UHGV virus genome: UHGV-0169486
Reading direction: 5' to 3' (one strand)
Source: a virus
DNA: 50,405 bases
Within the stretch, counting starts at the first letter, position 1. Every line of letters begins with the position of its first letter. The notes beneath the pieces are model-generated. The model had not been told where the DNA came from. It saw only the letters and a list, made by a program, of their open reading frames with translations, and ran no database searches. Of the stretch, positions 16,455 through 48,675 are shown piece by piece. Position numbers and translations under genes: made by a program.

Positions 16455-16624
16455 ACCCCCTCCTGTAAGTTACATTTTGTATATATCTTTACGCACTTCT
16501 ACGCGAAAAATGAGATATTCGACACAAGAATTATAGCCAATTTACAATATGTATTCACACACGAAGCAACAAGCTGTATACAGGAAGCAAGAAGAAAAGC
16601 GGTACCAGCAAGTGAGGCCCAAAA

Positions 16625-16780
16625 ATGAGTAGCTATGTAGTAGTGATGCTAAACAACGCATTCGAGCAAGTGGAAGTAGCAATTGTTAAGGGTTTCGACG
16701 ACGCATTCAAATACGGTCAATTCATGATGAACGCGAAGAATGATGAATACCGGGATTTCTTCCTGAGGGCGCTTAACTAA
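16625..16780 (+). CDS. hypothetical small protein (51 aa, island B)
   Basis: Own translation MSSYVVVMLNNAFEQVEVAIVKGFDDAFKYGQFMMNAKNDEYRDFFLRALN; GTGAGG RBS. Confidence 0.3.
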   Translation: MSSYVVVMLNNAFEQVEVAIVKGFDDAFKYGQFMMNAKNDEYRDFFLRALN

Positions 16781-16790
16781 GGACGATGGG

Positions 16791-17051
16791 GTGAGTTATG
16801 AAACTGGTAACTATCGAAAAAACCTGAAAGCACAAAAGAATGCACAGGAACGGGTAATCAAGAAAGGCAAGAAGTTGCTTAACGCCTTCCTGAAAAAAGA
16901 AGCCCGCCCCAAAAAATTACGTGATGGTTATGGCTTTAAATTCGATATCAATCCTGACTGGCGGCTGTTCAGTGAAGATTTGAATATTTGGTTAATTATC
17001 GATCACCTGGAATACAACTGTCATTGCGGAGTGAAAGGCGCTCATAAGTGA
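16791..17051 (+). CDS. hypothetical basic protein (island B)
   Basis: ORF track; GTG start with AGGA RBS; Lys-rich. Confidence 0.4.
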   Translation: MSYETGNYRKNLKAQKNAQERVIKKGKKLLNAFLKKEARPKKLRDGYGFKFDINPDWRLFSEDLNIWLIIDHLEYNCHCGVKGAHK

Positions 17052-17160
17052 GGTGGAATATGGAGGAGGAGAAATATACCTAGCGGGAGATCTGGAACAT
17101 CTGGTTAGTGATGTTCGGCAGGGGTTACGTCGCACGTAACGGAAGATTATAGGAGGAAAA

Positions 17161-17346
17161 ATGATTATTGACGAAACAGAGTTATGTTACGGAGTTAGGT
17201 TAGATCTTGATGAGGATGGTCGGCTGTGGATAACCGAACTTATGGGGACTGAAACCATAGTAATTGAAAAATCGCAGGCAACACAACTTATCGCCGGGCT
17301 GCAAAAATTTGTAGATGGCACATTTGAGAACGATCGGGAGGATTAA
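17161..17346 (+). CDS. hypothetical acidic small protein (island B)
   Basis: ORF track; strong AGGAGG RBS. Confidence 0.5.
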   Translation: MIIDETELCYGVRLDLDEDGRLWITELMGTETIVIEKSQATQLIAGLQKFVDGTFENDRED

Positions 17347-17348
17347 CG

Positions 17349-17636
17349 ATGGATTTAACCGTTATTGGTCACGCACTGGCTGCGGCGACTATACAGGTTG
17401 TTATCGGCCTGCTTACTGGTGATTATCTCACTGGCGGCCTGATTGGATGTACATTCTTTTTTGCGCGGGAACACACACAGGCTGAATATCGTTACATAGC
17501 GGAATTTTGCGGAGGGAAACGAGAAAGAATGCCGTGGTATGGTGGTTTTTTACCAAAAGCATGGAATATGGCTAGCGTTTGCGACTTCGCCGCGCCCGCA
17601 TTCCTGTGCTGTTTAATTTATATCCTTACCATGTAA
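17349..17636 (+). CDS. hypothetical membrane protein (island B)
   Basis: ORF track; GGGAGGA RBS; hydrophobic N- and C-terminal segments; followed by terminator. Confidence 0.5.
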   Translation: MDLTVIGHALAAATIQVVIGLLTGDYLTGGLIGCTFFFAREHTQAEYRYIAEFCGGKRERMPWYGGFLPKAWNMASVCDFAAPAFLCCLIYILTM

Positions 17637-17640
17637 AATA

Positions 17641-17661
17641 AAGGCCGCTTATAGCGGCCTT
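17641..17661. terminator. bidirectional rho-independent terminator between tape measure gene and island B
   Basis: Hairpin AAGGCCGCT-tat-AGCGGCCTT with flanking T-rich runs on both strands. Confidence 0.65.
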
Positions 17662-17665
17662 AGTG

Positions 17666-20014
17666 TTATTTGCGGCGCGGTTGCAACATCCCGCCAGGTC
17701 TTTGCGATTCCCTTGTTATCATTTTCATTGCTACACGTTCCATTGTCTGTTCAAGTCTGCGGCTGTCTTCGTCACTAAATCCGTTTGTGGTTTGAATGTC
17801 GATGTAAACAGGCATACTGATACCGCCGCCGCCGCCGCCAATATCACGCCCCGGGATAACCCTGCCATTCTCGCCGGGGATCATGTATTGGTTGCCGTTA
17901 GACGTCTGGAATAGCTCCGGCCTGTTATGTTCCCCGACGCGGTACATATTGCCACCAATTACGCTACCACCATTAAAGCGCCCGCCGCCGAAAATGGATG
18001 TTGCCAGCGACGTGATCGCAGTAAGCGCCGCCGAACCAGCCGCCGCCCAGCTACCGCCAGTTGATGCAGCCGTTGCCGCCGCCGCCGGGGCCGCCGCCGC
18101 CGCGATGCTTCCCTGAGCGGCAACCGCGCTTGCCGTTGTACTTGCTTGAGTTGCCTTGCTTTGTGTTTCCATCATGATCTGATCTGCTATCCAGTCGGCT
18201 GCTATATCAGAAAGTCTGTTGCCAATATTCCCTAGTATATTGCTCCCTAAGTTAGCAAAAACATCGCTCAATGATTGAGTACCGTTAAGCAGGCCGACAA
18301 GCGCATTGCTCATACCACCTTTAAGGCCATTAACGCAATCACCGATCAGGCCGTTTGTCTGGCTTTGCGCCTGCCATTGCTCCCATTTCAGATCGCGGAT
18401 CTGTTGCTCATAGGCTAACAATGCCTGTTTCTGTTGCGCTTCGGTAGCGCCCAGGTCGATAAGCTTTTGCTTACGGACGGCCCATTCATCTTGTACCTGC
18501 TTAATAGGGTCAACCTCGCCTTTAAGCTGATTCATCGGGCTTACTATTTGCGCCCATTTATCACGCAATTCATCTACCTGAATTTGGGCTAATTCTTCAT
18601 CCCGTTCCTTAACTATCCCTTTTTGCGCGGCGCGGTACTCAAGGAGGGTGATTTTACCCTGGGCGAATGCAGCATCAATGGCCTTGCCGTTCTCTAACGC
18701 TTTGCGCATGGCGGCGGTGTCTTTATTGTACTGGTCAGAAACGCTTATACCCTTGTCACCAAGCGTATCCTCTTTGCTTTTCTTGCTGCCAGTCTTCTTA
18801 CCCTTTTTAGGCTTATCAACTGGCTTGTCGAATCCGGTGATCTTGCCGTCGTTGGCTTCTGCCTGTTTCTGCATAAACTCATCATAAGCGGCAGTCGCGT
18901 TTTTAATGTCGTTTGCAAAAGTCATGACTTTACCGACTGTAGGGCCGAATTTCTTCTCATTGTTGCTATTTAGTTCTTCCTTGCGCTTATCTACAACCTC
19001 CTTCATCCATTTGTAGGCGTCCATAAGTGCCTTGATTGGCGTCACCATTGCGATGATCTTCTCTGCCACCTCGCCAGCCTTCACAGCCACATCATCAAAC
19101 ATGTCGATGAATTCGCCACCAGCCGTTTTGAGTGTATCGAAGCAGGTTTTAGCGAATTTAGCGCCCTCACCTAACCCCTTAACGCCTTTTGTGATTAAGT
19201 CGATAGCTGAGACTACGCCATCTGATACGCCGAAAAGATCATCAAGCTGTTCAACAAGCCCCATGATTTCGACTTTAAGCTCATTGATAGCCATGCCGGA
19301 TGTGCGCGGCAACTGAGCAAACTGCTCGTTTGTTTCCTGCGTAGCCGCCTGGATTGCGTTAACCATCCTTTCTGCCGTGATCTTGCCGTCCAGCATTTCG
19401 GCGCGGAACTTGCCCATAGATAACCCCATCTGACGGGCCATTGTCTGTACGATGGTCGGGGTGTTTTCAAGTAGGCTGTTAAATTCTTCAGCACGCAGCA
19501 CGCCGCCGTCTATAGACTGGCGGAACTGGCGCATAGAGTTAGACATCTGTTCCGCTGATGCGCCGCCTAACGCCCCCATTTTCTGAATAGTGCCAACCAG
19601 GTTAAGTAATTGCCCTTCCGTAGCTGACGTGTTCTTCAGTGAGATGGCAAGACCTTGCCATAACTCGCCAGTATCCTTCAGGCTTTGCCCTGTTTCCCTG
19701 GATATTGCTTTCAGGCCGTCGAAAACCCGTCCGGCGGACTCCGCATCGCCCGTAAGCATTTTGATTTTTACGCGAAGCATTTTGGCCTGCTCTGCCATTT
19801 CCATAAACTGTCTAACGGCCTCGGCAGCAATTAGCAGATAGATAACCTTGGTCAGTGCTTTGATTGATGTTTTCAGTGTGTTTACCTGGCGATCTGCCTG
19901 TTTAGCACCGCGCTCTATACGGTCAAAGGCCTGGTCTGCCTGTCGTTGTGCTACAAGAAGTTGTCCTGTTTTTGCGTCAACTTCGTAATAAATTGTGCCT
20001 ACACTGGTAGCCAT
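17666..20014 (-). CDS. tail tape measure protein
   Basis: 782 aa, helical/coiled-coil composition, Ala/Gly-rich C-terminal region; located between chaperone and M; GAGG RBS. Confidence 0.9.
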   Translation of the reverse strand: MATSVGTIYYEVDAKTGQLLVAQRQADQAFDRIERGAKQADRQVNTLKTSIKALTKVIYLLIAAEAVRQFMEMAEQAKMLRVKIKMLTGDAESAGRVFDGLKAISRETGQSLKDTGELWQGLAISLKNTSATEGQLLNLVGTIQKMGALGGASAEQMSNSMRQFRQSIDGGVLRAEEFNSLLENTPTIVQTMARQMGLSMGKFRAEMLDGKITAERMVNAIQAATQETNEQFAQLPRTSGMAINELKVEIMGLVEQLDDLFGVSDGVVSAIDLITKGVKGLGEGAKFAKTCFDTLKTAGGEFIDMFDDVAVKAGEVAEKIIAMVTPIKALMDAYKWMKEVVDKRKEELNSNNEKKFGPTVGKVMTFANDIKNATAAYDEFMQKQAEANDGKITGFDKPVDKPKKGKKTGSKKSKEDTLGDKGISVSDQYNKDTAAMRKALENGKAIDAAFAQGKITLLEYRAAQKGIVKERDEELAQIQVDELRDKWAQIVSPMNQLKGEVDPIKQVQDEWAVRKQKLIDLGATEAQQKQALLAYEQQIRDLKWEQWQAQSQTNGLIGDCVNGLKGGMSNALVGLLNGTQSLSDVFANLGSNILGNIGNRLSDIAADWIADQIMMETQSKATQASTTASAVAAQGSIAAAAAPAAAATAASTGGSWAAAGSAALTAITSLATSIFGGGRFNGGSVIGGNMYRVGEHNRPELFQTSNGNQYMIPGENGRVIPGRDIGGGGGGISMPVYIDIQTTNGFSDEDSRRLEQTMERVAMKMITRESQRPGGMLQPRRK

Positions 20015-20164
20015 GATTTAACCTCATGCAAATGTGATCTATGCATCTATTTTATACAAAATGTCTTTACTTTAACGATACCGTTTTGTATAAATGATGT
20101 AGGGAAAGATAGAAGAGATGCAGGAAGGACGGATGTCCCGGAGGAAGTGAAAGAGGATAAGGAA

Positions 20165-20248
20165 ATGAGAAACGTAAACTACCGTCCCAACGAATATGAA
20201 CGCTATGCGGACCTTATCGAAGAAATGTTAAAAGCACTTAAAAAATAA
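20165..20248 (+). CDS. possible micro-ORF (27 aa)
   Basis: Own translation MRNVNYRPNEYERYADLIEEMLKALKK; GAGGATAAGGAA RBS. Confidence 0.25.
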   Translation: MRNVNYRPNEYERYADLIEEMLKALKK

Positions 20249-20315
20249 ACAATATGCGTGTATAACTAAGTTAAATGAAGCATTTAGCAAATCAGAATAA
20301 TTACGGGGGTTAATT

Positions 20316-20729
20316 ATGAAACGGTTAGCAAAAATGGTACTTGCTGTGATTGCTGCACTGGCATTTAACGCGAACGCTAACGAGGCCATAAACATTAACT
20401 GTGAAGAAGTGGCAAACCATGTAGCCGCATATCACGACATGATCAAAAAAGAACCAGCCGCACCCAAAATTCTTTTTAAGGTAATTGATAAAATTTTTGA
20501 AGGTAAACCAGTTTATGCTCGTTGGTTTAATTATGGCCTTGTAATCGAGGCTGCTGCAAGCGTAGGCTTTGAAAACAACAGCGAAATAAAAAACAGGATA
20601 GCTAACGAGTGTAAAGCAAATAAAATTGCTTTCGCTGAAAGAATTTTTAATAAAGGCGGCGCTGGCGCAAAAAATCACGCAATTGTCAATTTAGGTAACG
20701 GTTTTATTGATATTGTTAGAATCAAATAA
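20316..20729 (+). CDS. secreted/periplasmic hypothetical protein with signal peptide (opposite-strand accessory gene)
   Basis: N-terminal signal peptide MKRLAKMVLAVIAALAFNANA; GGGGG RBS; AT-rich; own terminator. Confidence 0.6.
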   Translation: MKRLAKMVLAVIAALAFNANANEAININCEEVANHVAAYHDMIKKEPAAPKILFKVIDKIFEGKPVYARWFNYGLVIEAAASVGFENNSEIKNRIANECKANKIAFAERIFNKGGAGAKNHAIVNLGNGFIDIVRIK

Positions 20730-20736
20730 GACAAAC

Positions 20737-20758
20737 GCCCGGATCTACCGGGCTTTTT
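20737..20758 (+). terminator. rho-independent terminator after secreted-protein gene
   Basis: GCCCGG-atcta-CCGGGC followed by TTTTT. Confidence 0.6.
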
Positions 20759-21422
20759 CTTGCTTGCGATTTTCCATTCTTTTTAGCGCCTTTTTAGCGG
20801 CCTCCATTTGCTCGTCATAAGCACGTTTATTTATGTGAACGTTTGGCTTACTTCTTTCGCTTCTTTCGTCTGGCGGCGTTTTAGCGCGTACAGTGGCCCT
20901 ATATCCGGTCATTGTCATATTCCATGCTTCCGATTCTGACAAGCCCAGGTGAGCAACGGCAGAATAGACGAATTCAAGGACGTTAAAAGTCGGCTTATAT
21001 TCCCCTTCCGGGATTTCTCCGGCATCTTCTTCCGGCCCATCACCGATTAAGCCGTGGTACACGCAATGCTGCGCCAGCGTGATAACGTCGTCAGTAGGCA
21101 TCAAGCCTGGTTTTAGTCGCAACTTGCCCGAAGGAGTAAACCTACACTCGCCCAATAACGGGCCTATTTCATCGTCTGAGCAACATTTCAGGATGTGCAT
21201 TGATGTCTGCACTATTTCACCATAACACCGCGCCAGAATGCGATTGCGTAAGTCTGGGTCTGCTGGCAAGCGTGATGGATATTTGCCGCCGTGGATTGTT
21301 GCAAAATATTCGACCAGTTCTCTGTCACTGCCTATTTTTGCCATCGCGGCGAAGCAGGGATTAAACACATACCGCCTACCGTCTACCACCGCCGCAAATT
21401 GCCCGGTCCGAACATGAATCAT
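20745..21422 (-). CDS. tail assembly chaperone (by position between major tail and tape measure genes)
   Basis: ORF track (20745..21431); ATG 21422 with AGGGTGA RBS; synteny. Confidence 0.55.
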   Translation of the reverse strand: MIHVRTGQFAAVVDGRRYVFNPCFAAMAKIGSDRELVEYFATIHGGKYPSRLPADPDLRNRILARCYGEIVQTSMHILKCCSDDEIGPLLGECRFTPSGKLRLKPGLMPTDDVITLAQHCVYHGLIGDGPEEDAGEIPEGEYKPTFNVLEFVYSAVAHLGLSESEAWNMTMTGYRATVRAKTPPDERSERSKPNVHINKRAYDEQMEAAKKALKRMENRKQEKAR

Positions 21423-21432
21423 AGTTATCACC

Positions 21433-21476: not shown

Positions 21477-21953
21477 TTATTCCGATGGGATATCGCCTAC
21501 CGTTACCTGTCCAGCGCTTTCGCACTCAATAGACCAGGTAGAAACATCATCGTGCGGATCTTCTTCTTTAAAGGAAGTGCAAAGGAATGGGCCTTCGGTT
21601 ACGTCTACAGGAGAAACGATCTTTAGCCATACATAAGGTTGTGATCCAGTGGTTTTGTCTGGCGTAATTACGTGGCGTTTCAGCACTTTCTGATTATGGA
21701 TTCCCTCAGTACGGGATACACCGTCGCCGGAGAAAGAAACGGATTTGTAAGTAACCATTGATTCCTTCGTGTAATCGGCTGATTTATCGGCGGTGGCGTC
21801 TGCGGTTTCCCATTCGACGGAAAGCGTTTTTCCGCGCATCATGCCTAACTCTTTATAATCGCTAGCTACCGGCTTCGCATTTGGACAAGCGATAGCGAAG
21901 AATACAGCAACGTCACGGCCTAAAAACGCGCCTTTTTCGCAAGTCTGAGACAT
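21477..21953 (-). CDS. major tail (tube) protein
   Basis: Size and position upstream of chaperone/tape measure; followed by terminator. Confidence 0.6.
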   Translation of the reverse strand: MSQTCEKGAFLGRDVAVFFAIACPNAKPVASDYKELGMMRGKTLSVEWETADATADKSADYTKESMVTYKSVSFSGDGVSRTEGIHNQKVLKRHVITPDKTTGSQPYVWLKIVSPVDVTEGPFLCTSFKEEDPHDDVSTWSIECESAGQVTVGDIPSE

Positions 21954-24862: not shown

Positions 24863-25243
24863 TTAAGCGACGCGAACGCGAATAAAGTCTTCTGCGTCCA
24901 GGGTTACATCTTCCTGGCAGTATGCAACGGTTACTTCACCCAGCTTGATGGCCTGGTCTTTGGTGTAGGCAGCCGCCGTCGCGCGATAAGCAAACTCGCG
25001 ACCTTCTTCCACGTAGTCAGCAACAACGGTTTCACCTTGCGCGATTGCATCGGCAATGGTTTTGCCTTCATGGAATGCAGGGTTAACGATATACAAGCGA
25101 GCAACCCCAGCATCACCATCCACCGCCTTCACAAACTTGCTATCTTCCAGTTTCACCAGTTCGCCGGGTTTTAATTCAGCACCAGCGAGGCGGGTTTCGG
25201 TAATGGATTTACCATCAATATTTACACGACGAAAACGAAACAT
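24863..25243 (-). CDS. small head protein (possible decoration/structural)
   Basis: ORF track; position between scaffold and capsid genes. Confidence 0.5.
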   Translation of the reverse strand: MFRFRRVNIDGKSITETRLAGAELKPGELVKLEDSKFVKAVDGDAGVARLYIVNPAFHEGKTIADAIAQGETVVADYVEEGREFAYRATAAAYTKDQAIKLGEVTVAYCQEDVTLDAEDFIRVRVA

Positions 25244-27475: not shown

Positions 27476-28793
27476 TGTTGTTTTCCTCGTCGTCCAGTTC
27501 TACTTCCTGCGTTGGCCCTTCATACCCGGCAGCTTCGCGAATCTCGTCACCGTCGAATACTTGTTCACCTGTGGCGAGACATGCCTGATTGATTTGCGCC
27601 ATTTTGTATGCCGCGTCGAGTAGCTCGGCTTTCGTCATGGCGTTAAGGTCGTCCCACAGTACCGACACGTCGACTGGCATACTGATAAGGCGGAGATCTG
27701 CCATCTTGCGGAATAGTTCCTCAAGCTCGCCTCCTATTTCCTCCCGGCGGGTCATACAGCGGTTATTGAAGTAGCGGAGGTCTTCGGTTGATGCACGCTC
27801 ACCCTGCTGATTCCCAACCAGGATACGCGTTGGAATGTCGATGCCAGCGGCGGCGGTTTGCAGGTTGACGTCATAGGTAGCGGACGGATCGGCTACGGCA
27901 GTGACCAGCGGGCTAACGGTAGCTCCCTGCAATGCCATCATCACATCATTGCCCTTGTTTATATCCTCTGCCGCCTCATTGAATTTTTCGCGTAGCTCTG
28001 TAACGTCGCAACCGTATGTTGCAGCCAGGGAACGGAAATCAATTTCTTTATCGAACGAGATAGCCAGTTGACGCGCGGCGTTTTTCAGGAATGACTCACC
28101 GCTACCGCCTTCCACTTTCTCCAGCGAAACGAATGCGTTATAGGGCGGCTCAAGGAAAGCGATGGCATCATCAGAATAATCACCGAAGATAAATATGCGA
28201 TCGGGATGTATCTTTCTTGCTATGGTCTTACTGTTAATGCGCTCCTTGTATTCCCACCATGTCGGCAGGCCATAGTTTTCATTATCCGGGTTTTCTTCGA
28301 AGTCCTTCGGTGTAAGAGCACCAGCCCATACAGGGGTAAATTTGGCAATGCCTACACCTTTCGTCACTGGCCGATCCCACGGCTGGTTATCCCTGACGTG
28401 AATTAACAGGCCAGCATAACGACCAATGAGGCGGCGGCGATCGCATTCAGCTATGACGCGCCAGAAACGATTATCAAATCGTTTTTTGATTTCTCTTTCC
28501 CACGGCGTTTCCTTTTCTGCTTTCTCGTCTTCCGTACCTTCGATCAGCGTTGGCCTGGTGCGCCAGCACGTAGTGATGATCTTCTCAATAGCACCGTGAG
28601 CGATACCACCGCGACGATACAGTTTGTATAAATCGTCATAGGTGATTTCTTCTTTGAATCCGTATTCACTCCACGCAGCATCACGTTTTGCATCAATACC
28701 CATTGAGAATGGGTTAGCGGCTGCATAGCGGGCAAAGGCCGCCTGGCGTTGTGACAAGGCAGCATTAACCGCCAATTCTAAATTGGATGGCAT
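27420..28793 (-). CDS. portal protein
   Basis: ORF track (27420..28814); ATG 28793 with AGGAG RBS; size and position after large terminase; acidic C-terminus. Confidence 0.65.
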   Translation of the reverse strand: MPSNLELAVNAALSQRQAAFARYAAANPFSMGIDAKRDAAWSEYGFKEEITYDDLYKLYRRGGIAHGAIEKIITTCWRTRPTLIEGTEDEKAEKETPWEREIKKRFDNRFWRVIAECDRRRLIGRYAGLLIHVRDNQPWDRPVTKGVGIAKFTPVWAGALTPKDFEENPDNENYGLPTWWEYKERINSKTIARKIHPDRIFIFGDYSDDAIAFLEPPYNAFVSLEKVEGGSGESFLKNAARQLAISFDKEIDFRSLAATYGCDVTELREKFNEAAEDINKGNDVMMALQGATVSPLVTAVADPSATYDVNLQTAAAGIDIPTRILVGNQQGERASTEDLRYFNNRCMTRREEIGGELEELFRKMADLRLISMPVDVSVLWDDLNAMTKAELLDAAYKMAQINQACLATGEQVFDGDEIREAAGYEGPTQEVELDDEENNNEGEENNQANTSSRDNAI

Positions 28794-47454: not shown

Positions 47455-47484
47455 AATGTCACCTTTGAAAGTTTACATTTTGTA

Positions 47485-47775
47485 TTATCTGTAGCGTACT
47501 TTATCCAGGGGTTTTTCCCCTAGACTACGCGGTTGTGTTGCGTGGTAGTAATTGCCGCTTTCGTTTTCCGCATACCATTTTGCCGCACCTTTGCGATGCT
47601 CTTTAATGCCATTCGGTTTGCATCTTTCTACGTTTGCAAAACGAATAGCTTTATCAACATTGTCAGTTTTATTGATTGCAGGTGATGATTTTCTTTCGTT
47701 TTCTCTTTTTATTCTTCTGCGTTCCCTGGCATTTATTTTGCTATCACATTTGCCATACATAATTGTTACGGTCAT
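47485..47775 (-). CDS. N-like transcription antitermination protein (arginine-rich motif)
   Basis: First gene downstream of PL-like promoter and boxA/boxB; ARM-like NARERRRIKRENERK; AAGGAG RBS. Confidence 0.55.
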   Translation of the reverse strand: MTVTIMYGKCDSKINARERRRIKRENERKSSPAINKTDNVDKAIRFANVERCKPNGIKEHRKGAAKWYAENESGNYYHATQPRSLGEKPLDKVRYR

Positions 47776-47940: not shown

Positions 47941-48029
47941 TCCATTTTGTATACTTTTTTAAATATTTTATATGTCATTGATATTTAAATAATAAAACAC
48001 GTTTTATGTTTACGTTTTGGTGTTTTCAG

Positions 48030-48063: not shown

Positions 48064-48675
48064 TTATGGCAGGTTTACGATCTTCGCGTCCACCACCACG
48101 CCTATGATTTTCGATTCAGGATTCATGGGGATTGGTGGATACAGCGGGTTAAGCGAACGTAAAAGCCTTTGACCTCCATCAATAATCAACTGTTTAAACG
48201 TCGGTATTTGCCCTTCCTCAAGCTGTGCTATAACCAGCTTTCCATCGATAGCTGGCGCGTGTGGGTCAACAAGTATCATCGTCCCGGCAGGGATGCTCAA
48301 CCCCTGCGGCGCGTTCATTGATTCACCTTTAGCAACCAGCCAGTAACTATCATCTGAACAAATAACGCTAGTCGTAACGTGTGGTAATGTTGATCGCCTT
48401 GTATCTTCCATATTGTTTACTGTGTCCTTCCAGTCAACAACCGGGTAACTGCCTAAATCACGCTGCGGCGCTCCCGGTAACGTGTTAGAAACAGAATCAT
48501 CAATGACCATTCCATCATGGGTAACAGTGAACTGCCGACGACCAAGTGCCCGCATAATCCGCGCAATATCTTCAAGATTTGGCTCGCGGCGACCGTTAAG
48601 CCAGTGTGACAGGCCGCCTTTAGTTATCCCCATGAGATCCGCGAGTGAATCCTGGCTCATGCCTTGCGCTCGCAT
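48064..48675 (-). CDS. CI-like repressor (HTH plus LexA/S24 peptidase domain); 5' end possibly frameshifted
   Basis: HTH SQDSLADLMGITKGGLSHWLNG; S24 region with GESM and Lys; annotated ATG lacks RBS and truncates helix 1. Confidence 0.7.
   Translation of the reverse strand: MRAQGMSQDSLADLMGITKGGLSHWLNGRREPNLEDIARIMRALGRRQFTVTHDGMVIDDSVSNTLPGAPQRDLGSYPVVDWKDTVNNMEDTRRSTLPHVTTSVICSDDSYWLVAKGESMNAPQGLSIPAGTMILVDPHAPAIDGKLVIAQLEEGQIPTFKQLIIDGGQRLLRSLNPLYPPIPMNPESKIIGVVVDAKIVNLP

Follow-up and report, generated by a model that had tools for sequence, protein, structure and literature searches.

An antisense accessory cassette in the tail gene cluster

The 730-bp gap between the tail length tape-measure (TMP) gene and the DUF6246 gene of virus genome UHGV-0169486 (50,405 nucleotides; "the window" below means this whole stretch) is, judging from its counterparts in related phages, a family-wide accessory slot with a common leader and terminator and swappable cargo, rather than a private insertion. 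Its cargo here is a plus-strand gene for a 137-aa protein with a predicted signal peptide, preceded by a 27-aa open reading frame (ORF). The explanation toward which we lean is a moron cassette that would provide the lysogen with a periplasmic protein, most plausibly for superinfection exclusion. Our confidence differs among the parts of this explanation: the moron architecture is highly likely, an envelope function expressed from the prophage is rather probable, and superinfection exclusion as the specific function is put forward tentatively.

The initial annotation had placed a 730-bp insert with a plus-strand ORF of 137 aa at this junction, and both were found as described, the gap running from 20015 to 20744 between the end of the TMP start codon (20014) and the DUF6246 stop codon (20745–20747). 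These two genes are on the minus strand, and the plus-strand cassette is embedded between them in an otherwise uninterrupted minus-strand structural module. GC content is 37–38% in the slot vs. 47–53% in its flanks, and both the GC and the AT skew take the opposite sign in the gap, as is expected where the coding strand switches. Extra DNA, deviant base composition and an own terminator, all marks of a moron, were found together. The main features are:

17666–20014, minus strand: tail length tape-measure gene (782 aa; Pfam TMP_3, PHROG 1538)
20015–20744: 730-bp accessory slot between TMP and DUF6246, of low GC and with reversed strand skews
20165–20248, plus strand: 27-aa ORF (MRNVNYRPNEYERYADLIEEMLKALKK), the cassette's first gene; ribosome-binding site (RBS) GAGG 8 nt ahead of it
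20305–20309, plus strand: GGGGG Shine-Dalgarno sequence of the 137-aa gene, 6 nt before its ATG
20316–20729 (stop included), plus strand: gene for the 137-aa protein, predicted to be exported (signal peptide codons 20316–20378; mature part 116 aa)
20745–21431, minus strand: DUF6246 gene (228 aa; Pfam DUF6246, PHROG 791, unknown function)
21477–21953, minus strand: tail tube protein gene

The slot and its cargos in related phages

The window was compared with seven GenBank phages and with 74 IMG/VR loci that have a DUF6246 relative. The slot was filled in all 51 genomes of the mEpimmI type (a count that includes the window), measured 640–1275 bp, and was always antisense to the late operon; its leader and terminator are common to these phages, and it is thus no private insertion of one genome. 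At 19 of 27 loci from the distant phages (DUF6246 at 25–41% identity) the TMP gene directly adjoins or overlaps its DUF6246 neighbor (gaps of –4 to +77 bp), and on that ground the junction can indeed be called normally contiguous, as initially claimed. The cargos, named by predicted location, were as follows (the counts sum to more than 51 because several cargos co-occur within one slot):

18 slots, window included: 137/138-aa secreted protein
6 slots: 116–119-aa secreted two-Cys protein, unrelated to the former
1 slot: 165-aa secreted protein
16 slots: 219-aa lipoprotein with a VasI domain (PF11319, 1.4e-15, above cut-off)
11 slots: 124-aa lipoprotein, weakly BamE-like
11 slots: 35–54-aa transmembrane (TM) peptide plus 100-aa two-TM protein
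7 slots: 106-aa protein without export signals

With the exception of the 106-aa protein, every alternative cargo is envelope-targeted, by a Sec signal peptide, a lipobox or TM segments, which favors an envelope function for the 137-aa protein as well. When the different secreted cargos were compared (BLASTP and HHalign), only their signal peptides were related. Between mEp021 (137-aa type) and the IMG/VR locus L027 (116-aa type), the 63 nt that encode the signal peptide agree at 94%, identity falls to 43% exactly at the predicted cleavage site, and the mature parts are unrelated (HHalign probability <1%). Such a sharp recombination breakpoint, placed where the signal peptide would be cut, is an example of export-module re-use by phages.

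The DUF6246–TMP junction is a recurrent, independently colonized landing site of envelope-protein morons. Morons at the chaperone–TMP junction have been known since HK97, and our finding leaves the view of phage genomes unchanged; modestly new are the organized slot (fixed leader, small ORF, terminator), the sharing of a single signal peptide by mature domains that are unrelated, and the antisense orientation. What the slot offers is an orphan family of predicted periplasmic proteins and at least six sister cargos in a defined hotspot of a phage group reported to be gut-prevalent, all cheap to assay for exclusion or envelope phenotypes and with the potential to add new post-adsorption exclusion mechanisms.

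VasI, the domain found in the 219-aa lipoprotein, is associated with the type VI secretion system (T6SS) and is unusual on a prophage moron; against TIGR03360 the same lipoprotein scored below the cut-off (45.8 bits vs. 124.2). Slots with this lipoprotein (L011, L013, L015–L019 and others) often continue with the 124-aa BamE-like lipoprotein, and the 27-aa ORF is mostly missing from them. Where a gap exists among the distant relatives (L058, L059, L063 and L078–L080), its genes run in the late sense; they encode lipoproteins and, in L078, a 181-aa protein that on a reading of its sequence is a Lom/Ail-type outer-membrane lookalike (signal peptide, C-terminal ...YSF).

Reality and coding strand of the 137-aa gene

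Substitution pattern, base composition and skew, clusters of homologues, and an invariant signal peptide and pair of cysteines all argue that the 137-aa ORF is a real gene and not a chance ORF. Relative to MagusPhagus, the closest sequenced phage (90% DNA identity), codon changes of the window in the 137-aa frame comprise 15 that are synonymous and 13 that are not; for the antisense 117-aa ORF (20325–20678, minus strand) the corresponding values are 4 and 21. A word-indexed search gave homologues in 17 protein clusters, whose named sources are all E. coli or uncultured Caudoviricetes, and across 15 aligned homologues the MKRL.K N-terminus, the AFNANA motif, Cys29 and Cys99 are invariant. The strong RBS of the initial annotation is the GGGGG listed above, and its counterpart in mEp021 carries an RBS annotation. 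A close copy of the gene (≥90% identity, full length) was found in 5 of 5426 complete E. coli genomes, each time beside a "DUF6246 family protein".

The opposite reading is that the plus-strand ORF is not a real feature, the minus-strand 117-aa ORF being an extension or read-through of the chaperone gene, or the ORFs being remnants. The 117-aa ORF does overlap the gene and is in frame with DUF6246, and automatic annotation of several mEp genomes puts small minus-strand coding sequences (CDSs) in the slot. However, the substitution counts just given favor the plus strand, as do the skews; the signal peptide, the two cysteines and many other positions are invariant in the aligned homologues; and the DUF6246 TAG stop and non-coding sequence intervene between that gene and the 117-aa ORF, which vanishes when the cargo is swapped. 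The minus-strand chaperone extension was rejected on substitution pattern and skew, and we hold it to be very improbable that the plus-strand ORF is not a gene.

Some copies are damaged. A frameshifted or truncated 137-aa gene was seen in the 81-aa protein P0018 and at locus L036, the first 53 residues being normal and followed by IKQLTSISKVNQFTQDGL; such copies suggest occasional pseudogenization in some prophages.

Predicted export and structure

We assessed the signal peptide by rule and by comparison of homologues. It has an n-region MKRLAK of charge +3, an 11-residue h-region MVLAVIAALAF with a mean Kyte-Doolittle value of 2.95, and a c-region N-A-N-A with Ala at –3 and –1, placing the predicted cleavage at 21/22 (…AFNANA|NEA), so that cleavage after ANA, as initially proposed, is canonical by rule and conserved in the homologues. 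We found no lipobox ([LVI][ASTVI][GAS]C) in the 137-aa protein and no Cys ahead of residue 29, and no TM segment in the mature 116-aa part (maximum 19-residue Kyte-Doolittle value 0.75). All the marks of a Sec/SPase I substrate are present (a positive n-region, an h-region 7–15 residues long, positions –3 and –1 taken by small residues, and no lipobox Cys), and the n/h/c pattern is kept in every aligned homologue, the h-region drifting in sequence yet remaining hydrophobic. It is quite likely that the product would be exported by Sec, cut by signal peptidase I and released as a soluble, mostly helical periplasmic protein of 116 aa. The invariance of the two cysteines, together with the periplasmic location, suggests that a Cys29–Cys99 disulfide probably forms in the mature protein.

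Just before the predicted cleavage site there is a length polymorphism of (Asn-Ala)n (window 20364–20378; also P0005, P0007 and L023), with the versions AFNANA, AFNANANA and AFNANANANA. The expansions are in frame and presumably arose by slippage in AACGC(N) repeats.

The 137-aa protein is an orphan, without homology or fold evidence that would assign it a function. Nothing credible was found for it in Pfam, PHROGs, PADLOC-DB 2.0 or NCBIfam, PADLOC-DB 2.0 having no family for five of the alternative cargos either, and there was neither a PDB sequence match nor a fold match. When 1.84 billion cluster representatives were searched exhaustively with a profile, the matches were the protein's own cluster, the truncated or frameshifted P0018, and three long proteins matched over ~35 residues; the latter were judged spurious, the one inspected (P0021) being a tandem-repeat protein. 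The AlphaFold2 model (pLDDT 79, pTM 0.78) has five helices and a C-terminal beta-hairpin.

The 27-aa ORF

The initial annotation called the 27-aa ORF "possible". It is present, and that wording understates it: by its pattern of variation and its recurrence it is a genuine conserved small gene. An ORF of 27–29 aa follows the leader in 36 of the 51 slots, most of its variable sites (16 of 23 and 13 of 18) are third positions of codons, synonymous differences outnumber non-synonymous ones in pairwise comparison (255:95 and 159:63), and the sole length change is an in-frame NVNY/NYY indel. In a tblastn search of the phage collection it was found in mEpimmI phages only. Its stop lies 12–14 nt from the cargo ATG in most slots, with a 67-nt spacer in the subtype of the window and MagusPhagus.

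In GenBank the ORF is without annotation in mEp021 (MH706966), and in several of PP180001, PP180004, PP180005 and PP925836 it is overlapped by minus-strand "hypothetical protein" calls. Recognizing this ORF, so far unannotated or wrongly stranded, is thus a correction to existing annotations. The membrane-protein cargo of mEp554 is likewise annotated on the wrong strand (mEp554_92).

Leader, candidate promoter and terminator

The non-coding parts of the slot, read from the sequence and the leader alignment, hold these elements:

20033–20039, plus strand: TGTGATC motif, of which TGTGAT is invariant in 39 unique leaders
20051–20061 and 20084–20094: inverted repeat TTTATACAAAA / TTTTGTATAAA, bracketing the candidate –35; the most conserved leader or non-coding element of the slot
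20066–20071 and 20089–20094, plus strand: candidate sigma-70 promoter, TTTACT, a 17-nt spacer and TATAAA
20737–20761, plus strand: intrinsic terminator GCCCGG-ATCTA-CCGGGC (20737–20753) followed by TTTTTCTT, folding at –12.9 kcal/mol

The position of the candidate promoter (TTyAyT, 17 nt, TATAAA) is kept in all leaders, between or within the arms of the inverted repeat, although its hexamers are imperfect. A minus-strand TMP promoter within the inverted repeat was also considered, and dropped for its poor –35 match at proper spacing.

At the other end, the hairpin and T-run bear out the initial claim of an own terminator. Essentially every slot closes on the right with this structure, in one case with a stem mismatch (8 of the slot tails compared were cut short of the closing stem), and terminators are annotated there in the GenBank records of the mEp phages. 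It is bidirectional in form, and its loop holds the TAG stop of DUF6246 on the opposite strand.

Antisense placement in the late operon also suits a lytic-cycle helper, expressed early after infection or induction, before late transcription, which would modify the envelope, for example to stop progeny from re-adsorbing or to tune lysis; T5 Llp is an example of an envelope change that stops progeny re-adsorbing to the dying cell. The placement would permit a pre-late window of expression with automatic shut-off, and the conserved inverted repeat and TGTGAT near the candidate promoter suggest regulated transcription. But no single cargo is indispensable, unrelated cargos interchanging among near-identical phages as is typical of accessory genes, and all carriers are temperate phages or prophages. 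We consider a lytic helper quite unlikely.

Several smaller observations concern these elements. TGTGATC is a lookalike of a CRP half-site, and in some relatives the 16-mer TGTGATCTAGATCTCT agrees with the CRP consensus in 13 of its 16 letters; purely as conjecture, such a site would be centered ~61 bp ahead of the transcription start (near 20101) that the candidate –10 predicts, a distance typical of class I CRP promoters. The same motif also lies inside the TMP 5' untranslated region on the opposite strand. Of the half-site of the inverted repeat, CATTTTGTATA(A/T)A, the window has 9 copies (≤2 mismatches) vs. 3.0 expected, a number reached in 0 of 100 shuffles; further copies are at 16473–16485, 28620–28632, 47476–47488 and 47943–47955, one of them just upstream of a second antisense cluster (described below) and two near the cI region. 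The half-site could act as a common –10 or operator element. The last nine DUF6246 codons (ENRKQEKAR*, 20745–20761, minus strand) are written in the complement of the T-run and stem of the cassette terminator. Ribosomes ending DUF6246 would cover the hairpin in late mRNA and might in this way keep late transcription from terminating at it. An Rfam scan of the slot gave a single match, a rimP-leader over the terminator, which was sub-threshold and rejected.

Function of the 137-aa protein

Among known systems the closest in position is HK97 gene 15, the first-named moron, which is also an extra gene at this junction (the order being genes 13/14, gene 15, terminator, gene 16, the TMP gene) and has a small, envelope-targeted product. 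That product, gp15, is expressed from the prophage and causes superinfection exclusion, blocking DNA entry without blocking the receptor (PMC3594210). It is a 62-aa inner-membrane protein whose gene points the same way as the tail genes, whereas the protein here has 137 aa, is predicted to be Sec-exported and soluble, is encoded antisense, and is preceded by a 27-aa ORF; nor does the 137-aa protein belong to the gp15/YebO family (BLASTP E = 11, no mature TM segment).

In expression logic the closest is taiEcA of phi80, an antisense defense gene in the late operon, with lytic-phase shut-off by late transcription expected (PMC11364771). The two cases share an opposite-oriented prophage accessory gene within the late transcription unit, and Tai differs in lying upstream of the packaging module and in blocking tail assembly, while our protein is predicted to be exported and lacks a PADLOC match. 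The slot does present the arrangement of a non-contiguous operon, an opposite-direction gene among co-transcribed genes.

The definition of a moron is reportedly that of Juhala et al. 2000, and lambda lom and bor are classical lambdoid morons. The cassette resembles these in being extra DNA that separates genes which adjoin in related phages, in its deviant composition, in its own terminator and in its envelope-targeted product. It differs in that its own promoter is only a candidate, and in being more organized than a one-off insertion, with a fixed slot and a common leader and signal peptide re-used by unrelated cargos.

T4 Spackle, T5 Llp and the Cor proteins of phi80 and N15 are phage envelope proteins with signal peptides that block superinfection, Spackle being a periplasmic inhibitor of lysozyme. 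No sequence or fold similarity to the solved Spackle structures was found, and in contrast to Cor, Llp and Lpp the 137-aa protein has no lipobox (its c-region FNANA being followed by N). In the mEpimmI phages themselves, Lpp021 and Lpp010 exclude by receptor class (PMC11893012). The Lpp genes must lie outside the slot, since the slots of mEp021, mEp010, mEp515, mEp044 and mEp554 hold no lipoprotein gene; and carriage of the 137-aa gene, unlike Lpp exclusion, is independent of OmpA/LamB receptor type.

We therefore picture the cassette as follows, without pressing the details. In the order conserved leader, 27-aa ORF, 137-aa ORF and intrinsic terminator overlapping the DUF6246 stop, it would be transcribed from its own weak or regulated leader promoter while the prophage is repressed, and convergent late transcription would silence it in lytic growth, by the logic of the non-contiguous operon. 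The product would act on the cell envelope to the benefit of the lysogen, most plausibly in superinfection exclusion or in protecting the envelope. Its likeliest action would be exclusion after receptor binding, by interfering with the incoming tail tip or with DNA passage across the periplasm. This is favored because HK97 gene 15, at the same junction, blocks DNA entry and leaves the receptor unblocked, because every cargo but one is envelope-targeted, because the separate Lpp lipoproteins already give exclusion at the receptor level, and because carriage of the 137-aa gene by both OmpA- and LamB-dependent phages argues against a receptor-specific role. The initial annotation had typed the gene as one of lysogenic conversion or exclusion; as a class this is reasonable, given the moron composition and the HK97 gene 15 precedent, and for the function itself neither homology nor fold speaks.

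Several points weigh against this explanation. Receptor-level exclusion in the mEpimmI phages is already attributed to the Lpp lipoproteins (PMC11893012). The 137-aa gene occurs in both the OmpA-using mEp021 and the LamB-using mEp010 (there as the 138-aa allele, mEp021_63 in mEp021), and cargo type is uncorrelated with the flanking TMP and DUF6246 alleles: the two-lipoprotein slots adjoin TMP N-termini 97–98.7% identical to the window's, and other 137-aa-type slots adjoin TMPs only ~83% identical to it. With no co-variation with receptor or TMP allele, a specific phage target cannot be inferred. The AlphaFold2 model is only moderately confident (built on 13 closely related sequences). Finally, on the plus strand of the gap a consensus scan called no sigma-70-like promoter, and TATAAA, the candidate –10, does not end in the conserved T; for these two reasons the leader promoter may be weak or activator-dependent.

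The main competing explanation keeps the same architecture and export evidence and makes the protein a lysogenic-conversion factor directed at something other than phages, protecting against lysozyme, colicins or bacteriocins, periplasmic T6SS effectors or gut stress. The uncoupling of cargo from receptor type and TMP allele is what a non-phage target predicts, the VasI-domain lipoprotein of sister slots (PF11319, 1.4e-15) hints at such a role, another cargo is weakly BamE-like, and distant relatives have at the junction what reads as a Lom/Ail-like outer-membrane protein. On the other side, the gene is rare, as its 5 close copies in 5426 complete E. coli genomes attest, and the best-studied moron at the junction, HK97 gene 15, is anti-phage. 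We regard a non-phage role as unlikely, if less so than a lytic helper, and retain the moron cassette with an exclusion function as the preferred explanation.

A bolder version of the latter, which we consider doubtful, would see in the slot a plug-and-play export platform, its fixed leader (with a regulated promoter, the invariant inverted repeat and the 27-aa ORF), signal-peptide segment and terminator serving as recombination arms for the swapping of unrelated envelope-acting domains among mEpimmI phages. The 137-aa orphan would then be a periplasmic exclusion protein of new fold that intercepts siphophage tails or tape-measure proteins post-adsorption, and the 27-aa peptide a co-factor or translational coupler.

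Phage type, neighboring genes and a second antisense block

From genome alignment the window phage is assigned to the mEpimmI (mEp021-like) group, that is, to temperate, Nus-dependent, non-lambdoid coliphages: 73–86% of window positions 25001–50000 aligns at 86–88% identity to MagusPhagus, mEp010, mEp554, mEp044, mEp013, mEp515 and mEp021, and a cI-like repressor (HTH plus S24) is encoded at 48064–48675. This group, reported to be prevalent in the human gut and provided with isolates, lysogens and assay systems, has been described (PMC11893012); neither the text nor the supplements of that paper mention the slot or the 137-aa gene. The label "tail assembly chaperone" for the DUF6246 gene is an unverified one, given by position only (between the tail tube and TMP genes), the DUF6246 protein having no NCBIfam or PDB match.

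A second plus-strand accessory block, antisense to its surroundings, lies beyond the TMP gene at 16455–17660, so that both TMP flanks carry antisense morons. Its ORFs are:

16625–16780, plus strand: 51-aa ORF
16791–17051, plus strand: 86-aa ORF with a ParE-like toxin domain (PF24732, 2.2e-10)
17161–17346, plus strand: 61-aa ORF
17349–17636, plus strand: 95-aa ORF, hydrophobic

The 86-aa ORF and the 51-aa ORF that precedes it are possibly a toxin-antitoxin pair.

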